A stretch of DNA of 64,000 bases. It comes from a virus. How positions within the stretch are numbered: the first letter of the stretch is position 1; every line of letters begins with the position of its first letter. Positions 1 to 47,272 of the stretch are shown piece after piece. The notes below the pieces were generated by a model, which saw only the letters and a program-made list of their open reading frames with translations, searched no databases and was not told the DNA's origin. The translations under genes were made by a program, and so were the position numbers. The stretch spans positions 1 to 64,000 of the IMG/VR virus record IMGVR_UViG_3300012984_000001; one strand, 5' to 3'.

Positions 1-272
1 CAGACATTGTTACTGAGCACGTATTGGCATTTGCCGAAGAAAATCCAGAAAAATATATTGCTTACACAGAAGACCCTGGAATCAAAATGAAAGGAGTTAT
101 CAAAAGCGCGCTTGCTTCTGGAGATTTGATTTACAGCAATTATCGTTGGTTGAACGCAAATCGAGAAGTTATACTCGAAGTTTCTAAAAATCAAGATGAA
201 ATGGATGAAATGGTCAGATATTTTGAAGGAGGAATCGGAAGAACTTACTATGAGTTCCTTGTAAATAAATAA
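1..272 (+). CDS. C-terminal part of a phage protein (start lies before the window)
   Basis: Reading frame is open from the window edge to TAA at 270-272; function not recognisable. Confidence 0.6.
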   Translation, partial: DIVTEHVLAFAEENPEKYIAYTEDPGIKMKGVIKSALASGDLIYSNYRWLNANREVILEVSKNQDEMDEMVRYFEGGIGRTYYEFLVNK

Positions 273-286
273 TTTTTAAAAAACAC

Positions 287-318
287 TTGTTTCTTAAAAT
301 AAAAAATACCTATATTTG
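287..318 (+). promoter_or_regulatory. Bacteroidota sigma70-type promoter for leader 1 / tRNA block 1
   Basis: -7 element TATATTTG at 311-318 with a TTG-containing -33 region upstream. Confidence 0.7.
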
Positions 319-341
319 TAACTGAAAATAAACATTAAAAA

Positions 342-416
342 ATGCTAAGTATAAACACGATAAATATGATTGCTAGAGTTGGGGATAACTTCCCAAGCAA
401 GAGGTTTATGGTGTAA
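342..416 (+). CDS. Attenuator leader peptide 1 (MLSINTINMIARVGDNFPSKRFMV)
   Basis: 24-aa ORF with A-rich start context between promoter and terminator; codons 4-16 are all read by block-1 tRNAs; contains antiterminator strand AAGAGGTTT (399-407). Confidence 0.85.
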   Translation: MLSINTINMIARVGDNFPSKRFMV

Positions 417-438
417 ATTAAACAAATTACAAATATAT

Positions 439-475
439 AAAAGCCTCTTAATAAATTTAAGAGGCTTTTTGTTTT
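439..475 (+). terminator. Attenuator terminator 1
   Basis: AAAAGCCTCTTAA/TTAAGAGGCTTTT hairpin plus T-rich tail ending at the first base before tRNA-Ala. Confidence 0.85.
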
Positions 476-547
476 GGGAGATTCGTATAGTGGTTATTAC
501 AATAGTTTTGCAAACTATAAACACGGTTTCGATTACCGTATCCTCCA
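476..547 (+). tRNA. tRNA-Ala(TGC)
   Basis: Anticodon arm ATAGT-TTTGCAA-ACTAT, G3.U70 pair, TTCGATT T-loop. Confidence 0.85.
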
Positions 548-560
548 CAGAAATAAATAT

Positions 561-633
561 TCGTGTGTATTTCAGTTGGTAGAAAGCAATCCTGATAAGA
601 TTGTATGCGAAGGTTCAAGTCCTTCCGCACGAA
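561..633 (+). tRNA. tRNA-Ile(GAT)
   Basis: Cloverleaf; CAATC-CTGATAA-GATTG. Confidence 0.9.
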
Positions 634-639
634 CAAATT

Positions 640-711
640 GCGAGTATGGTGTAAAGGCTAACATAGGAGACTTCCAATCTTTTGATAACAGTTCGAGTCT
701 GTTTATTCGCT
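640..711 (+). tRNA. tRNA-Gly(TCC)
   Basis: Cloverleaf; GGAGA-CTTCCAA-TCTTT; U73. Confidence 0.9.
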
Positions 712-715
712 CAAT

Positions 716-787
716 GGTCTATTTGTGTAATGGTAGCAGTACTGGCTTGTCACGCCAGAGGCGAGAGTTCGATTCTCTCATAGACCG
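716..787 (+). tRNA. tRNA-Asp(GTC)
   Basis: Cloverleaf; CTGGC-TTGTCAC-GCCAG; G73. Confidence 0.9.
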
Positions 788-791
788 CAAT

Positions 792-862
792 GGCTTAGGT
801 AGTTTAATGGTAAAACACTTCTCTTGTAAAGAAGATACGGGGTTCGAATCCCACGTAAGCCT
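792..862 (+). tRNA. tRNA-Thr(TGT)
   Basis: CTTCT-CTTGTAA-AGAAG anticodon arm; imperfect T/acceptor stems. Confidence 0.8.
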
Positions 863-866
863 CAAT

Positions 867-937
867 ACCTTGTTTGCATAATGGAAGTGCCGATGTTTTA
901 CATGCATCTGGCGGTAGTTCGATTCTACCACAAGGTA
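867..937 (+). tRNA. tRNA-Val(TAC)
   Basis: Cloverleaf; GATGT-TTTACAT-GCATC. Confidence 0.9.
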
Positions 938-943
938 CAAATT

Positions 944-1016
944 GTCGGTATAGCATAAATGGAAATGCAGAACACTTCTAATGTTCCGATTGGCAGTTCG
1001 AATCTGTCTATCGACT
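944..1016 (+). tRNA. tRNA-Arg(TCT)
   Basis: Cloverleaf; GAACA-CTTCTAA-TGTTC. Confidence 0.9.
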
Positions 1017-1025
1017 CAATTAAAT

Positions 1026-1098
1026 CGCCTCGTAGCTCAATCGGTGGAGCAGCGCACTCATAATGCGAAGGTCAAGAGTTCGAAACTCTTCGAGGCAA
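1026..1098 (+). tRNA. tRNA(CAT): elongator Met or Ile2 (lysidine)
   Basis: Cloverleaf, loop CTCATAA, C1.A72 mismatch but no GGG/CCC anticodon stem; identity not resolvable by eye. Confidence 0.85.
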
Positions 1099-1103
1099 CA
1101 AAA

Positions 1104-1176
1104 GATTTCATAGCTTTAATGGTAGAGCGTCCGACTGTTAATCGGGTGGTTGAAGGTTCGAATCCTTCTGAAATCG
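1104..1176 (+). tRNA. tRNA-Asn(GTT)
   Basis: Cloverleaf; TCCGA-CTGTTAA-TCGGG; G73. Confidence 0.9.
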
Positions 1177-1185
1177 CAAAATAAA

Positions 1186-1216
1186 TTTGGTAATCCAAAA
1201 TTTTATTTTAAATTTG
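1186..1216 (+). promoter_or_regulatory. Internal promoter for tRNA-fMet / leader 2 / tRNA block 2
   Basis: TTTG (~1186) and TAAATTTG (1209-1216) match the Bacteroidota -33/-7 consensus. Confidence 0.7.
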
Positions 1217-1219
1217 CAT

Positions 1220-1292
1220 TGTGAGATAGAGCAGTTGGTAGCTCGTGTGGCTCATAACCATAAGGTCACGGGTTCGAATCCCGTTCTCGCAA
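1220..1292 (+). tRNA. tRNA-fMet-like (CAT)
   Basis: Initiator-type D-arm GAGC-AGTTGGTA-GCTC (A11-U24), TGTGG-CTCATAA-CCATA. Confidence 0.85.
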
Positions 1293-1306
1293 CTAAAAAA
1301 TACATT

Positions 1307-1378
1307 ATGAAAAATTTAAGTTTTTGTTTATCTTATTGGTTGTCGTTTAAATACGATACGGGATTTGATATGCAATAA
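1307..1378 (+). CDS. Attenuator leader peptide 2 (MKNLSFCLSYWLSFKYDTGFDMQ)
   Basis: 23-aa ORF; codons 4-14 are all read by block-2 tRNAs; antiterminator strand ACGGGATT (1358-1365). Confidence 0.88.
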   Translation: MKNLSFCLSYWLSFKYDTGFDMQ

Positions 1379-1406
1379 TTAAAAAAAATAATTGTATTTA
1401 AAATTT

Positions 1407-1437
1407 AATCCCGTTCGAAAGTTCGGGATTTTTTTTT
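1407..1437 (+). terminator. Attenuator terminator 2
   Basis: AATCCCG/CGGGATT hairpin plus long T run, 3 nt before tRNA-Tyr. Confidence 0.85.
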
Positions 1438-1440
1438 ATT

Positions 1441-1509
1441 GGGAGTAATTCTTCGGAGAAGCCAGCTCTGTAAAAGCTCAAATAGTAGGTTCGATTCCTT
1501 CTACTCCCA
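1441..1509 (+). tRNA. tRNA-Tyr(GTA), atypically short
   Basis: GGGAGTA/TACTCCC acceptor, AGCT-CTGTAAA-AGCT, tiny D-arm, no long variable arm. Confidence 0.75.
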
Positions 1510-1512
1510 CTT

Positions 1513-1585
1513 AGGCGTATGGTGAAATGGTAAGCACAACAGTTTTAAGAGCTGTCAATTGCGAGTTCGAGTCTCGCTACGCCCA
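1513..1585 (+). tRNA. tRNA-Leu(TAA), short variable loop
   Basis: ACAGT-TTTAAGA-GCTGT; GCGAG-TTCGAGT-CTCGC. Confidence 0.85.
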
Positions 1586-1591
1586 CAAAAA

Positions 1592-1678
1592 GGAAGGACA
1601 AGCCAATTGGTGGTGGCCGCAGTCTTGAAAACTGTTAGGAGTTAATGACTCGTGTGGGTTCGACTCCCACTTCTTCCG
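1592..1678 (+). tRNA. tRNA-Ser(TGA)
   Basis: GCAGT-CTTGAAA-ACTGT, long variable arm, G73. Confidence 0.9.
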
Positions 1679-1683
1679 CAAAT

Positions 1684-1766
1684 AGAAAGTGAAACACATA
1701 GGATGTGTGCCTCCCTGCTAAGGAGTGCGAGGGTAAAACCTTTAGTTTCGAATACTACTCTTTCTG
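1684..1766 (+). tRNA. tRNA-Ser(GCT)
   Basis: CTCC-CTGCTAA-GGAG, long variable arm, G73; atypical D-arm. Confidence 0.8.
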
Positions 1767-1770
1767 CAAT

Positions 1771-1841
1771 GCTTCTCAACGTAGGTTGTGTCAATCGGTC
1801 TCCAAAACCGTATTGTAAAGGTTCGAATCCTTTGAGTTGCG
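1771..1841 (+). tRNA. tRNA-Trp(CCA)
   Basis: CGGT-CTCCAAA-ACCG; good T-arm; weak acceptor and D stems. Confidence 0.75.
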
Positions 1842-1846
1842 CTATT

Positions 1847-1919
1847 GGGAATATGGCAGATAAGGTTATTGCGGAGGACTGAAAATCCTTAGGAGTTGGG
1901 TCGGTACCAACTGTTCCCA
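1847..1919 (+). tRNA. tRNA-Phe(GAA)
   Basis: GAGGA-CTGAAAA-TCCTT; non-canonical T-loop GTCGGTA. Confidence 0.85.
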
Positions 1920-1924
1920 CAAAT

Positions 1925-1995
1925 ATCAGGAATGCTGATGGTGAAGCGAATGGATTGCAAACTCATTTTTATCGGTTCGATTCCGATTCCTGATT
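1925..1995 (+). tRNA. tRNA-Cys(GCA)
   Basis: Loop TTGCAAA, U73 discriminator, ATCAGGA/TCCTGAT acceptor. Confidence 0.8.
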
Positions 1996-2004
1996 CTAAA
2001 ATAG

Positions 2005-2076
2005 TGACTCATAAGCGATTCGAACGCCTATCCTCGGATTCGTAGTCCGAAATTCTATCCATTGAAATAATGAGCC
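2005..2076 (-). tRNA. tRNA-Arg(ACG)
   Basis: Minus-strand cloverleaf; TCGGA-CTACGAA-TCCGA. Confidence 0.9.
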
Positions 2077-2079
2077 TTA

Positions 2080-2164
2080 TGGTGCGAAGTGTGGGAGTCG
2101 AACCCACAAAGCTACAATATTCTAAGTATTGCCACTATTCCTTTCGTTGTTAAGCCAACTTCGC
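2080..2164 (-). tRNA. tRNA-Leu(TAG)
   Basis: CAATA-CTTAGAA-TATTG; encoded CCA; atypical D region. Confidence 0.8.
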
Positions 2165-2169
2165 TTTAG

Positions 2170-2242
2170 GGTGTAATGTGAGAATCGAACTCACGTTTTT
2201 TGCTTCACAGGCAAACGACTTAACCGTTAGTCCAAAAACACC
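2170..2242 (-). tRNA. tRNA-His(GTG)
   Basis: TTTGC-CTGTGAA-GCAAA; G-1/C73. Confidence 0.9.
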
Positions 2243-2247
2243 ATTTG

Positions 2248-2319
2248 TAGGAGTATCAAGAATCGAACTTGAATAACTAGAGTCAAAGTCTAGTATAATA
2301 ACCATTATATCATACTCCA
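2248..2319 (-). tRNA. tRNA-Gln(TTG)
   Basis: CTAGA-CTTTGAC-TCTAG. Confidence 0.9.
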
Positions 2320-2324
2320 ATTTG

Positions 2325-2396
2325 CATTCCGTATGGGAATCGAACCCATGTCTCCTGATAGAAAGTCAGACGTGTTAACCACTTCACTAACGGAAC
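2325..2396 (-). tRNA. tRNA-Glu(TTC)
   Basis: TCTGA-CTTTCTA-TCAGG. Confidence 0.9.
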
Positions 2397-2402
2397 TTTT
2401 TG

Positions 2403-2473
2403 TCTAATAGTCAGGATTTGAACCTGAGTACTCCTCCTTCCAAGGGAGGCATGAAACCGTGCTTCGCTACTAG
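2403..2473 (-). tRNA. tRNA-Pro(TGG)
   Basis: CCTCC-CTTGGAA-GGAGG; C1-G72, A73. Confidence 0.85.
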
Positions 2474-2477
2474 AAAT

Positions 2478-2509
2478 AAAAAAAACCACTCTGATTAAGA
2501 GTGGTTTTT
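2478..2509 (-). terminator. Attenuator terminator 3
   Basis: AAAAACCACTCT/AGAGTGGTTTTT hairpin with U8 tail on the minus strand, 4 nt before tRNA-Pro. Confidence 0.85.
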
Positions 2510-2532
2510 AAGTTTTTATATTGATAACAACA

Positions 2533-2604
2533 CTATACAGAAATTCCACCCATAAGTAAATTATGTTGCGGAAGGCGTTCAATATTATTTTTAATAGTTT
2601 TCAT
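2533..2604 (-). CDS. Attenuator leader peptide 3 (MKTIKNNIERLPQHNLLMGGISV)
   Basis: 23-aa ORF; codons 9-14 GAA CGC CTT CCG CAA CAT match the six block-3 tRNAs; antiterminator strand GGGTGG (2546-2551). Confidence 0.9.
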   Translation of the reverse strand: MKTIKNNIERLPQHNLLMGGISV

Positions 2605-2608
2605 GTTG

Positions 2609-2616
2609 CAAACATA
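2609..2616 (-). promoter_or_regulatory. -7 promoter element for leader 3 / tRNA block 3
   Basis: TATGTTTG on minus strand 4 nt upstream of the leader ATG (near-leaderless transcript). Confidence 0.65.
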
Positions 2617-2670
2617 TAAAATATTTTTTATATATACACTATGATTTAAATATTATATTACATTAAACTT

Positions 2671-2700
2671 TTGTTGTTCTTTATTTTTTATCTTTGTTTT
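2671..2700 (+). promoter_or_regulatory. Promoter of tail/structural operon
   Basis: TATCTTTG at 2689-2696; TTGTTGTT...TATCTTTGTTTT also found at 52813-52840. Confidence 0.6.
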
Positions 2701-2713
2701 AAAATAATTAAAG

Positions 2714-3451
2714 ATGATTTCTATCAACAAATTCCGAAATACAATACTGTTCTTGCTTGAAAAGAATAATCGTGGTTTTTTGGGGCCACAAGTTCTTGAT
2801 TCATTTGTTGACTTGGCTCAAATTGAAATTTTTGAGAATCTATTTTTTCAATACAACAAATGGCTAAACAATCAATCAAGACATTTAGCAAATACAGAGT
2901 TTGCGGATATTCCAAAAAACATTAAAGAACAGATTGATTATTTTTCTGAATACTCAACGACAGGGAATTTCACGTATGATGCTCCAAATGATGTATGGAA
3001 ATACAACGGAACTGATATTTTATACAGAACAGAAGGATTGTCGTTGGTAAATTCTTCTGGAAAAAAAGTAGATATTGAGGAAGTTTCTAAAGGTTCCGCA
3101 TGGAATAACATGATAAACTCAAAAATAAATCCACCATCTGTGACATTTCCTATTTACACAAAAATAAAAGATGGGTACCGTGTTGCTCCAAAAGCAACTA
3201 CAGGATATAGCGTTGAATTATTTTTCATAAGAAGACCAAAGGCTCCAAAATGGACTTATATCGAAGATGCAAACGGAAATCCATTGTTTAATGCTGGAGC
3301 GTCCGATAGACAAGATATAGAATTGGATGAAAGTTTGTTTTATCCGCTTGTAATGAAAGTAATGTCGTTTTGTGGACTTTCAATACAAGAATCAGAAATA
3401 TTAACCGCTGCAGCAAATGCAGAAATAGCAATCGATCAGAAGCAATCATAA
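2714..3451 (+). CDS. Virion structural protein (tail ring/adaptor-like)
   Basis: 245 aa, first gene of the structural operon; resembles ring proteins of Bacteroidota podoviruses; assignment by recall and synteny. Confidence 0.6.
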   Translation: MISINKFRNTILFLLEKNNRGFLGPQVLDSFVDLAQIEIFENLFFQYNKWLNNQSRHLANTEFADIPKNIKEQIDYFSEYSTTGNFTYDAPNDVWKYNGTDILYRTEGLSLVNSSGKKVDIEEVSKGSAWNNMINSKINPPSVTFPIYTKIKDGYRVAPKATTGYSVELFFIRRPKAPKWTYIEDANGNPLFNAGASDRQDIELDESLFYPLVMKVMSFCGLSIQESEILTAAANAEIAIDQKQS

Positions 3452-3454
3452 GTT

Positions 3455-4378
3455 ATGAGTTCAATGAATCCTGCCGAATATTATGAAAATGAAGACAACC
3501 ATGGTAGTTATCAATACGTAAACCTAGAGGAGTTGGTTATAAATTTCTTGACTGACTGGACTGGTGACGGAAAAATTTTAAATAAAGTGTCTCGTGCAAA
3601 AGTTATAGCCAAATTCAAGCAAGGGATAAAAAAGTTTAACATGAACGCATTGCGCGCGAAAAAAACTGTAGAACTAGAACTTGGAGACACTTTAGATATT
3701 ATTATGCCCCCGGATTATCTCAATTGGGTGAGAATTTCTTATGTGAACCCAGAAACAGGTGAATTGATGGGTTTATCCAGAAATGACAAAATCCCTATGG
3801 GAAGTGCGTACTTACAAGATGATAAAGCTGATATTCTTTTCGATGATGAAGGATTTATTTTAGAAGGAACTACGTATTATGATGAATTAAATGACACAAT
3901 AAACTTAAACAAAAGAACTTTTTTAGGTTATATGGATTGTGGATGCATCGGAAATTATGTCGGATATTGGGGTGGTTACGGGTATGATTATTCGTATATG
4001 CCGACTCCTCCTCCTACAAATTTTCTTCTTGACCCGTCTCAAAATGCAAACGGTTATTTCAACATAGACCAAGAACAAGGCAGAATTCATTTTAGTTCAG
4101 ATAATGCGAGTAGAGTTATAATGCTTGACTATATCTCAGATGGTTTGCAACACGCAAAAGATACTGATGTAAAAGTGATAAAACTTGCAGAAGAGGCTCT
4201 TTATAATTTCGTTAACTACGAATTAATGAAGACTCTGAATAATGTTCATATGTATGAGAAACGAGATGCTAGAAGAGCATGGGAAGCGGAATACAAAAAT
4301 GCTAAAATAGCAATGATGGATATTAAAATTGACGACGTTATGTTGTTTTTAAACGCTAAGAATCGATGGGTACATTAA
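3455..4378 (+). CDS. Virion structural protein (tail tubular/ring-like)
   Basis: 307 aa; PPDYLNWVRIS and LDYISDG motifs; directly precedes the stabilisation protein. Confidence 0.6.
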   Translation: MSSMNPAEYYENEDNHGSYQYVNLEELVINFLTDWTGDGKILNKVSRAKVIAKFKQGIKKFNMNALRAKKTVELELGDTLDIIMPPDYLNWVRISYVNPETGELMGLSRNDKIPMGSAYLQDDKADILFDDEGFILEGTTYYDELNDTINLNKRTFLGYMDCGCIGNYVGYWGGYGYDYSYMPTPPPTNFLLDPSQNANGYFNIDQEQGRIHFSSDNASRVIMLDYISDGLQHAKDTDVKVIKLAEEALYNFVNYELMKTLNNVHMYEKRDARRAWEAEYKNAKIAMMDIKIDDVMLFLNAKNRWVH

Positions 4379-46663: not shown

Positions 46664-46748
46664 AGATTTGTGGCTGAGCGATTGAAAGCAGTTGCGGGAA
46701 ACGTGACGGGAAGTAGCTACCCCGAGGGTTCGAATCCCTCCAAATCTT
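46664..46748 (+). tRNA. Ser-type tRNA-like RNA with aberrant anticodon loop
   Basis: AGATTTG/CAAATCT acceptor, Ser-like D-loop and long variable arm, perfect T-arm; loop GGGAAAC lacks U33. Confidence 0.65.
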
Positions 46749-46899: not shown

Positions 46900-46972
46900 T
46901 TCCACATAGCTCAGTCGGTAGAGCAAATGACTCATAATCATTAGGTCACAGGTTCAATCCCTGTTGTGGAAA
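46900..46972 (+). tRNA. tRNA(CAT): Met or Ile2
   Basis: Cloverleaf; AATGA-CTCATAA-TCATT. Confidence 0.88.
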
Positions 46973-46973
46973 C

Positions 46974-47272
46974 AATTAAGTTGTTAAGTTCTTTAATTTT
47001 TTGTTTGGACGGGAGTTCGACTCTCCCCGACTCCACGAATCGAGTCCGTGTAAAGTGTTCGATGGTTTGGCACACCGATATACAAAGTGCTATTTTTGGG
47101 GTCGCCTGGTTTTGACAGCAAAGCGAATTAGAAGAAATAGACTTAATTAAAAATAACTGCAAAAGTTATAAACCTTTTTGGAAACGAAGCAAAACTTGCT
47201 GCGTAATCAACGAAATTTGTGATAGCGAAAATATCACTAAACAGCCGGAGGAGATTACTTCAAATCCGGTTT
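46974..47272 (+). ncRNA. ssrA: Circularly permuted (two-piece) tmRNA
   Basis: T-arm plus 3' acceptor strand CGACTCC-A (47011-47035) lies upstream of 5' strand GGGGTCG (47098); G3.U70; tag frame 47159-47206 AKVINLFGNEAKLAA*. Confidence 0.88.

Follow-up and report, generated by a model that had tools for sequence, protein, structure and literature searches.

IMG/VR virus record IMGVR_UViG_3300012984_000001 is a complete sequence of 75,694 base pairs (bp) with direct terminal repeats. Its first 64 kilobases (kb; positions 1 to 64,000) form the AT-rich stretch analysed here, referred to as the window. Of the sequencing runs listed for this DNA, a single one, a soil metagenome that may be its source, contains the entire stretch, and none is an RNA run, which bears neither way on expression. 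A dense array of transfer RNA (tRNA) genes fills the first 2.5 kb, directly upstream of virion structural genes identified by PHROG matches. The subject of this report is the third of the three blocks in this array, module 3, in which six tRNA genes on the minus strand are preceded by a short leader open reading frame (ORF) and an intrinsic terminator. Its features, in the order of transcription, are as follows; folding features derive from minimum free energy (MFE) structures.

2609..2616, minus strand: -7 box of the Bacteroidota sigma-A type, TATGTTTG, 4 nucleotides (nt) upstream of the ATG; pattern TANNTTTGNNNNATG at 2616-2602
2533..2604, minus strand: leader ORF of 23 codons, MKTIKNNIERLPQHNLLMGGISV, from the ORF listing; frame, length and MKT start are kept in the homologues of relatives L080 and L002
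2563..2580, minus strand: sensor run GAA CGC CTT CCG CAA CAT, codons 9-14 of the leader, one codon per block tRNA
2561..2573, minus strand: region 1, UUCCGC..CAUAA, 5' strand of the predicted anti-antiterminator hairpin (MFE folds), overlapping sensor codons 11-14
2544..2555, minus strand: region 2, UUAUG-GGUGGAA, pairing with region 1 or, via GGGUGG (2551-2546), with the 5' arm of the terminator
2481..2509, minus strand: regions 3 and 4, intrinsic terminator with a 12-bp stem and a 5-nt loop, U-tract to 2477, -13.0 kcal/mol
2402..2476, minus strand: tRNA-Pro (UGG), ARAGORN; Infernal 35.3 bits
2324..2396, minus strand: tRNA-Glu (UUC), ARAGORN; Infernal 64.2 bits
2247..2319, minus strand: tRNA-Gln (UUG), ARAGORN; Infernal 59.4 bits
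2169..2241, minus strand: tRNA-His (GUG), ARAGORN; Infernal 59.5 bits
2083..2164, minus strand: tRNA-Leu (UAG) with an enlarged D-loop and a short variable region; Infernal 38.9 bits (cut-off 29)
2004..2076, minus strand: tRNA-Arg (ACG), ARAGORN; Infernal 54.8 bits

The leader ORF lies directly upstream of the block on the same strand, with 56 nt between its stop codon and tRNA-Pro. A first-pass annotation of this DNA had claimed that six consecutive leader codons correspond, once each, to the six tRNAs of this antisense block. Reading the codons from 2580 to 2563 and identifying the tRNAs with ARAGORN and Infernal confirms the correspondence. The match holds by codon box, with CUU, CCG and CAU read via wobble and CGC via I34 (inosine). 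Of the 127,966 six-codon windows (six frames, 64 kb), this run alone is made up of {Glu, Arg-CGN, Leu-CUN, Pro, Gln, His} once each in any order; the expected number of such runs is 0.10 in the window and ~1e-4 in the 130 nt upstream of the block.

Five of the six block tRNAs are called by ARAGORN at default settings. The sixth is missed and, at relaxed settings, labelled Ala-GGC; it is assigned as Leu-UAG because the Infernal alignment puts CUUAGAA in the anticodon loop of the gene at 2164-2083, and the same alignment places a 12-nt insert in its D-loop. Infernal alignment and the anticodon stems led to rejection of the ARAGORN labels 'Ala-GGC' in the window and 'Arg-CCU' in relatives L079 and L108, all of which are Leu-UAG. 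A tRNA-Leu(UAG) with a D-loop enlarged by ~12 nt and a short variable region also occurs in L079 (1229-1310), L108 (1872-1953) and L134 (3994-4077). ARAGORN misses or mislabels the Leu(UAG) genes of this group, and the copy in phage Calle_1 is listed as 'tRNA-OTHER Undet' in GenBank; the CUN codons of the leaders predict the identity of these odd tRNAs correctly.

Between the leader and the block lies a potential RNA switch. The terminator starts 24 nt past the leader stop codon and ends 5 nt before tRNA-Pro. The free leader RNA has an MFE of -33.9 kcal/mol (z-score -4.1; 0/200 shuffled sequences fold as well), and in this fold U32-C37 pairs with G56-A61 and C40-A44 with U50-G54, engaging sensor codons 11-14, while the terminator is formed. 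The first-pass annotation had also proposed that GGGTGG can either pair with CCACTC of the terminator or be held in a TTCCGC..CATAA/TTATG..GTGGAA hairpin over the sensor codons. Both alternatives are recovered, and every sequence detail of that annotation proved correct: the hairpin (2573-2544) is present in the MFE fold, and the duplex between GGGUGG (2551-2546) and CCACUC (2504-2499) reaches -9.4 kcal/mol, against -4.1 +/- 1.5 kcal/mol for shuffled upstream sequence, a value that 0/300 shuffles attain. When a ribosome occupies codon 11 and the terminator still lacks its 3' arm, region 2 is predicted to fold onto CCACUC with -12.6 kcal/mol.

The promoter suggests how such a transcript would begin. 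In Flavobacterium psychrophilum, the -7 box spans -12 to -5 from the transcription start (PMC9723704); because the box in the window lies 4 nt before the ATG, the module 3 transcript is predicted to start at A2604, the A of the AUG, giving a leaderless leader mRNA. An identical spacing from box to ATG is found in L002, L009, L079, L080, L082, L094, L108 and L131, a set that was chosen by the search pattern. A host in Flavobacteriia is indicated by the promoter motifs and by the closest cultured relatives. In flavobacteria, operons for amino-acid biosynthesis show strong clues of upstream control by leader-peptide attenuation (PMC9723704). Cellulophaga phage phi38:1 lacks an RNA polymerase and relies on that of its host (PMC5335546); its genome is listed by blastn beside that of phi40:1, one of the relatives considered below.

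Module 3 is best read as a multivalent leader-peptide transcription attenuator that would control the six phage tRNA genes, a reading to which we assign a probability of roughly 0.8. In the proposed mechanism, host RNA polymerase would start at the Bacteroidota-type promoter, probably right at the AUG of the 23-codon leader, and a ribosome would translate the leader as the polymerase nears the strong intrinsic terminator. If all six sensor codons were decoded fast, the ribosome at the stop codon would mask GGGUGG, or let it re-pair with the sensor region; the terminator would form and the tRNA genes would be off. If any one of the six charged tRNAs were scarce, the ribosome would stall on the sensor run and cover region 1, and GGGUGG would be free to pair with CCACUC before the 3' arm of the terminator exists. 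With this antiterminator formed, the polymerase would read on into the block, from Pro through Glu, Gln, His and Leu to Arg. Once made, these tRNAs would relieve the stall, and the block would regulate itself by negative feedback on decoding speed; each block would constitute a negative-feedback loop because its output is the very tRNAs that read its sensor. Possible triggers are depletion or cleavage of host tRNAs during infection, or a rising demand from late genes. That the leader is translated, that its mRNA is leaderless, that stalling gives read-through and in which direction the switch works are inferred, as is the natural trigger.

The comparative evidence comes from 18 curated pairs of leader and block, drawn from this phage, from uncultured relatives and from cultured phages of Cellulophaga and Tenacibaculum. 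Relatives were gathered through a search with a neighbouring structural protein, through a pattern combining promoter and MKT start, and through blastn matches to the tRNAs, which led to the cultured phages. The pattern TTTTTTTATTTCTAG proved too unspecific; it occurs in at least 118 stretches, and among the matches listed one (L166) was useful. A tRNA-like gene of L080 with a non-canonical anticodon loop was excluded from the statistics. In the 18 pairs, every one of the block tRNA species (127/127) has a cognate codon box in its own leader (Fisher p = 1e-30). Coverage is 1.0 as observed, compared with 0.62 (maximum 0.85) when leaders and blocks are paired at random, and the longest run of cognate codons has a mean of 10.7 against 3.6; in neither case do any of 20,000 permutations reach the observed value.

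The match depends on the reading frame. In frame, coverage is 1.0 and the run 10.4; the other two frames give ~0.47 and 1.7, and the antisense strand 0.62 and 2.2. This bears on the idea that the leader RNA binds tRNAs directly by codon-anticodon pairing, in the manner of a T-box with several specifiers and no ribosome. Codons complementary to the block anticodons are indeed clustered in a structured 5' region, as such binding would require, but the signal needs the frame from ATG to stop and vanishes in the other frames, several codons match by wobble only, and the Stem I and T-box architecture is absent. A search of window positions 1-3000 (both strands) gave no Rfam match at E <= 1 to a T-box or other riboswitch family. 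Direct binding is thus an exceedingly remote prospect. Resemblance to attenuator families in Rfam is weak and sub-threshold (Phe_leader, 31.2 bits against a cut-off of 55; Thr_leader).

The relatives also show how the sensor changes. The sensors of the module 3 type read as follows.

Window: ERLPQH
L080: QRLPEH
L002: LHLRQQQEP
L094: RLHLEQLEQP, with UUA and CUN codons; the block has both Leu-UAA and Leu-UAG
L166: LHTEQRLQEP
phi40:1 and Calle_1: LLHQEPLEQLRLP
phi19:1: HIQRLPQP; the Glu codon is absent from the sensor run and the Glu tRNA from the block

The residue set is kept in these leaders while its order is permuted. The sensors of the window and L080 differ solely by two reciprocal G/C changes, which swap Glu and Gln. 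Like L094, phi40:1 has an extra Leu-UAA tRNA together with UUA codons. Other leader types follow their blocks in the same way: L009 has the leader SLYLSFCYSLIS followed by Tyr, Phe, Leu-UAA, Ser, Ser, Cys and Leu-UAG, and in L131 the leader LYLSLSYSLLS precedes Tyr, Leu, Ser, Ser and Leu, with codons and tRNAs for Phe and Cys both absent. Asn codons are gained together with an Asn tRNA in L082 and in block 2 of phi40:1. In L108, the second leader, IRTHKNNAVIIDWRTGG, covers 13/13 species of its block, and the Trp and His codons have shifted to this leader along with their tRNAs. Shared descent by itself would hardly produce such permuted orders together with matching gains and losses.

The terminator and its partner strand co-vary as well. 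An intrinsic terminator lies between stop codon and first tRNA in every pair, in most leaders at a distance of 24-29 nt from the stop codon. The strand that can pair with its 5' arm sits in the last codons of each leader and changes along with the terminator: GAGGAAG matches CCUCCUC in L080, GGAAGGAUU matches AAUCCUUCC in Tenacibaculum phage Gundel_1, and GGGUGG matches CCACUC in the window. Cognate antiterminator duplexes have a mean of -10.25 kcal/mol, compared with -7.14 kcal/mol for non-cognate combinations (0/50,000 permutations reach the observed value).

These observations can be set against the notion that the short ORF is not a sensor at all but a chance spacer ORF or a micropeptide, with the terminator acting as a constitutive insulator or a convergent 3' end. 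The module 3 terminator is terminator-like on the plus strand too. The convergent blocks 2 and 3 end 7 nt apart (1996-2004) with no terminator between them. The module 3 element may therefore also terminate block 2 transcripts extending antisense across block 3. A terminator that looks functional on the plus strand and could end block 2 read-through would suit an insulator, and two of the leaders of phi40:1 (L134, KC821612), at 710-817 and 3427-3531, are annotated in GenBank merely as coding sequences gp066 and gp070, 'hypothetical protein'. (The middle leader of that phage, 2200-2289, carries no annotation; a coding sequence on the opposite strand, gp067, is called over it.) Yet the codon run is unique in the window, the match is frame-specific, no permutation reaches it and the antiterminator co-varies, while a residue order permuted with its composition kept is the opposite of what a functional peptide would lead one to expect. 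A leader without a sensing role is hardly credible.

A further alternative reverses the logic of the switch: stalling would favour termination, with tRNAs produced only once translation is in good order. The direction of the switch is read from predicted folds, and a ribosome stalled at the last sensor codons may partly cover the antiterminator strand, either of which would leave room for this. The layout of the leaders speaks for the original direction. In many leaders nt 42 is the last position of the sensor core; the antiterminator strand begins a median 7 nt after the core, and the stop codon comes a median 11 nt further on. In 18/18 leaders, then, the terminator-complementary strand is situated between sensor and stop codon, a median 11 nt ahead of the latter, and would therefore be freed by a stall in mid-sensor and masked by a ribosome at the stop codon; modelled on this spacing, the strand falls inside the footprint of a ribosome terminating there. 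In predicted folds, free RNA forms both the hairpin that sequesters the sensor and the terminator (18/18 leaders), and a ribosome parked in mid-sensor leads to the antiterminator (18/18). Untranslated RNA would sequester region 2 by the sensor and form the terminator, which is the classical topology of the trp and his leaders. Reversed logic is, on these grounds, very unlikely.

The first-pass annotation had treated module 3 as a translated leader whose terminator responds to stalling, and at the sequence and comparative level this interpretation is supported by the anatomy of the locus, the co-variation of codons with tRNAs, the frame-specificity of the match and the co-variation of the antiterminator. 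Every sequence-level hallmark of a leader-peptide attenuator is present.

One design recurs in all three tRNA blocks of the phage, each leader covering all the species of its own block (9/9, 7/7 and 6/6). The sister modules are arranged as follows.

342-416, plus strand: leader of module 1, MLSINTINMIARVGDNFPSKRFMV; terminator 439-469, whole element 342..469
476-1177, plus strand: module 1 tRNAs Ala, Ile, Gly, Asp, Thr, Val, Arg-UCU, CAU and Asn; 9/9 species covered by the leader
1307-1378, plus strand: leader of module 2, MKNLSFCLSYWLSFKYDTGFDMQ; terminator 1407-1430, whole element 1307..1430
1441-1996, plus strand: module 2 tRNAs Tyr, Leu-UAA, Ser-UGA, Ser-GCU, Trp, Phe and Cys; 7/7 species covered by the leader

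What such a set of leaders would report can be debated. The same attenuator might respond to general translation capacity or to amino-acid supply through charging, switching its block on at any slowdown. Any stall in the leader, including one at a non-block codon or one caused by uncharged tRNA, would free region 2, and Anabaena offers a precedent in an extra tRNA array that is switched on by translational stress, namely by translation inhibitors (PMC8421152, PMC10272220). A general sensor would nevertheless have no need to track the tRNA set box by box (127/127, including the split Leu, Ser and Arg boxes), nor to gain and lose codons with tRNA genes, and three separately gated blocks argue for specific readouts. 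Such a general sensor is accordingly considered unlikely. The codon choice of the leaders touches on sensitivity: sensor codons lean to rare, wobble-read members of their boxes (CCG in 8/11, TCG in 8/18 and CGC in 6/8 cases, compared with 11-17% in the genes of the phage in the window), which would heighten the responsiveness of the sensor.

Several points weigh against the attenuator reading with tRNA-specific sensing. The leaders also contain non-block codons, in the MKTIKNNI head and in the tail, and three of the six sensor codons of module 3 (CUU, CCG and CAU) require wobble. All six codons are presumably also decoded by host tRNAs, and the sensor would therefore see the total pool rather than phage tRNAs alone. 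Leaderless messages make up only 5.5% of F. psychrophilum mRNAs (PMC9723704), and the leaderless start proposed here is predicted from promoter spacing only. The antiterminator is short, at 6 bp plus 3 flanking pairs, and with -9.4 kcal/mol against -13.0 kcal/mol for the terminator it must win kinetically. The gap between sensor and GGGUGG is only 11 nt, so a ribosome stalled at the last sensor codons may reach GGGUGG with its footprint. The 18 pairs behind the statistics are not phylogenetically independent, and their blocks and odd anticodons were curated by hand. Finally, module 1 of L002 (4424-4720) has a leader, MLNMNTIKANTIVGDRFPSKRRMV, that keeps codons for Asn, Thr, Ile, Val, Gly, Asp and Arg, while tRNA-Ala alone directly follows the terminator; a tRNA-Ile occurs farther on, beyond a second hairpin, and tRNAs for the remaining six residues were not found. 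The match between leader and block can therefore decay, and this element looks like a decayed or rearranged module.

Further observations concern these arrays and the rest of the window. Downstream of that element, L002 has a 9-codon ORF, MKTIKKYKR, with a hairpin, followed by tRNAs for Lys, Ile, Ser, Ser, Trp, Phe and Cys. In Gundel_1 (L133, MT732474; 3041-3813), an HNH endonuclease gene (3246-3752) stands between the second attenuator, made up of leader MKTNNLHIQQNNLPVFLEGFLYM and terminator, and its block of Pro, Gln, CAU, Asn and Leu-UAG; the presence of an ATA codon in this leader hints at an Ile2 (lysidine) identity for the CAU tRNA. In the window, a tRNA with a CAU anticodon at 1220-1293 lies ahead of leader 2 and is preceded by a TAAATTTG box of its own; it is the only tRNA of the array that is not behind a terminator and is co-transcribed with leader 2. 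The tRNA-Tyr (1441-1510, ~70 nt) and tRNA-Leu(UAA) (1513-1586, 74 nt) are without the long variable arm usual for bacterial class II tRNAs. A permuted transfer-messenger RNA (tmRNA) at 46987-47206 (plus strand; Rfam RF04321, 63.7 bits, cut-off 47), with the tag peptide AKVINLFGNEAKLAA in the ARAGORN reading, is a second translation-rescue element of the same phage and has no leader in front. It is adjoined by a CAU-anticodon tRNA (46900-46972, 73.6 bits) and a tRNA-like gene (46664-46748). Compared by blastn with 50,697 phage records, the window gave tRNA-sized matches only, and a full-length relative was not found among them.

Textbook cases of leader-peptide attenuation concern genes for amino-acid biosynthesis and a small number of synthetase genes. 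The phage modules resemble thrL (Thr and Ile), ilvL of ilvGMEDA (Leu, Val and Ile), trpL, hisL, leuL and pheL in having a short leader ORF with a run of regulatory codons, by which more than one amino acid can be sensed. They also share with the enterobacterial leaders overlapping 1:2, 2:3 and 3:4 helices and an intrinsic terminator, with the position of the ribosome deciding on termination. Unlike enterobacterial attenuators, the phage module would regulate tRNA genes rather than biosynthetic enzymes, and its tRNA product would directly relieve the stall. The phage sensor has one or two codons for each of 5-13 tRNAs, whereas enterobacterial leaders have a long run for one to three amino acids; moreover, the phage leaders are phage-borne, with a predicted leaderless mRNA from a Bacteroidota promoter, and have no sequence homology to the enterobacterial ones. 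In pheST of E. coli, with its pheM leader, attenuation sets the level of a component of the translation apparatus by the speed at which cognate codons are decoded. That system is cellular and concerns a synthetase and one amino acid; in the phage module, the tRNAs themselves would be the output.

The T-box provides a second point of comparison: there too, tRNA status is sensed and a terminator/antiterminator switch lies upstream of translation-related genes. It binds uncharged tRNA without a ribosome, through Stem I, a specifier loop and the T-box sequence, whereas the phage leader is without these and needs a reading frame. The nearest published biology found for regulated extra tRNA arrays is the trn L-array of Anabaena sp. 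PCC 7120, a horizontally mobile set of extra tRNA genes that is off and becomes induced when translation is impaired (PMC8421152). It is controlled by a ribbon-helix-helix repressor, TrcR, on repeats over the -10 box and the transcription start (PMC10272220), and the terms leader peptide, attenuator and terminator have 0 occurrences in the two papers on this array (PMC8421152, PMC10272220). Control of the Anabaena array is at the promoter and not codon-specific; in the phages, the conserved, co-varying element is the leader with its terminator.

Like the phage tRNA arrays considered in codon-compensation or counter-defence views, the present array is a large set next to late or structural genes. 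To our knowledge, published views on phage tRNAs concern their purpose and not the gating of their transcription by codon-matched leaders. A published account of leader-peptide attenuation of tRNA genes was not found in the full-text literature, a coverage that leaves out most subscription journals, and the regulation of phage tRNAs is not discussed in the paper on RNA sequencing of Cellulophaga phi38:1 (PMC5335546). What appears to be new is that classical attenuation is applied to tRNA genes and that the sensor enumerates the tRNAs of its own operon.

The design occurs in at least three named families (Assiduviridae, Pachyviridae and Pervagoviridae) and in uncultured relatives from soil and freshwater. 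In the tRNA arrays of crAss-like phage cr112_1 (L135) and Gordonia phage GMA2 (L138), no ORF plus terminator with a matched codon run was found; the design is therefore not universal among phage tRNA arrays. On balance, Bacteroidota phages probably run their tRNA arsenals as separately gated, self-limiting modules, each switched on only when its own codons are decoded slowly, forming an on-demand replacement circuit for host tRNA depletion.

If this is true, the circuit would detect depletion of host tRNAs, for example by anticodon nucleases or host shut-off, and repair it one codon box at a time. Among leader-peptide attenuators, it would be the first with tRNA genes on both sides of the loop, as what is sensed and as what is made, and it would explain how phages control the timing and extent of tRNA array expression. 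Cellulophaga phages phi38:1, phi40:1, phi19:1 and phi10:1 and Tenacibaculum phage Gundel_1 would then be cultured systems for testing whether phage tRNAs stand in for host tRNAs that have been depleted. The leaders also serve as an aid to annotation, predicting odd tRNAs that are missed or mislabelled by gene finders, such as Leu-UAG with its enlarged D-loop, and could be used as compact, programmable sensors of tRNA availability. In infected cells, they would provide a direct, codon-resolved readout of tRNA shortage.

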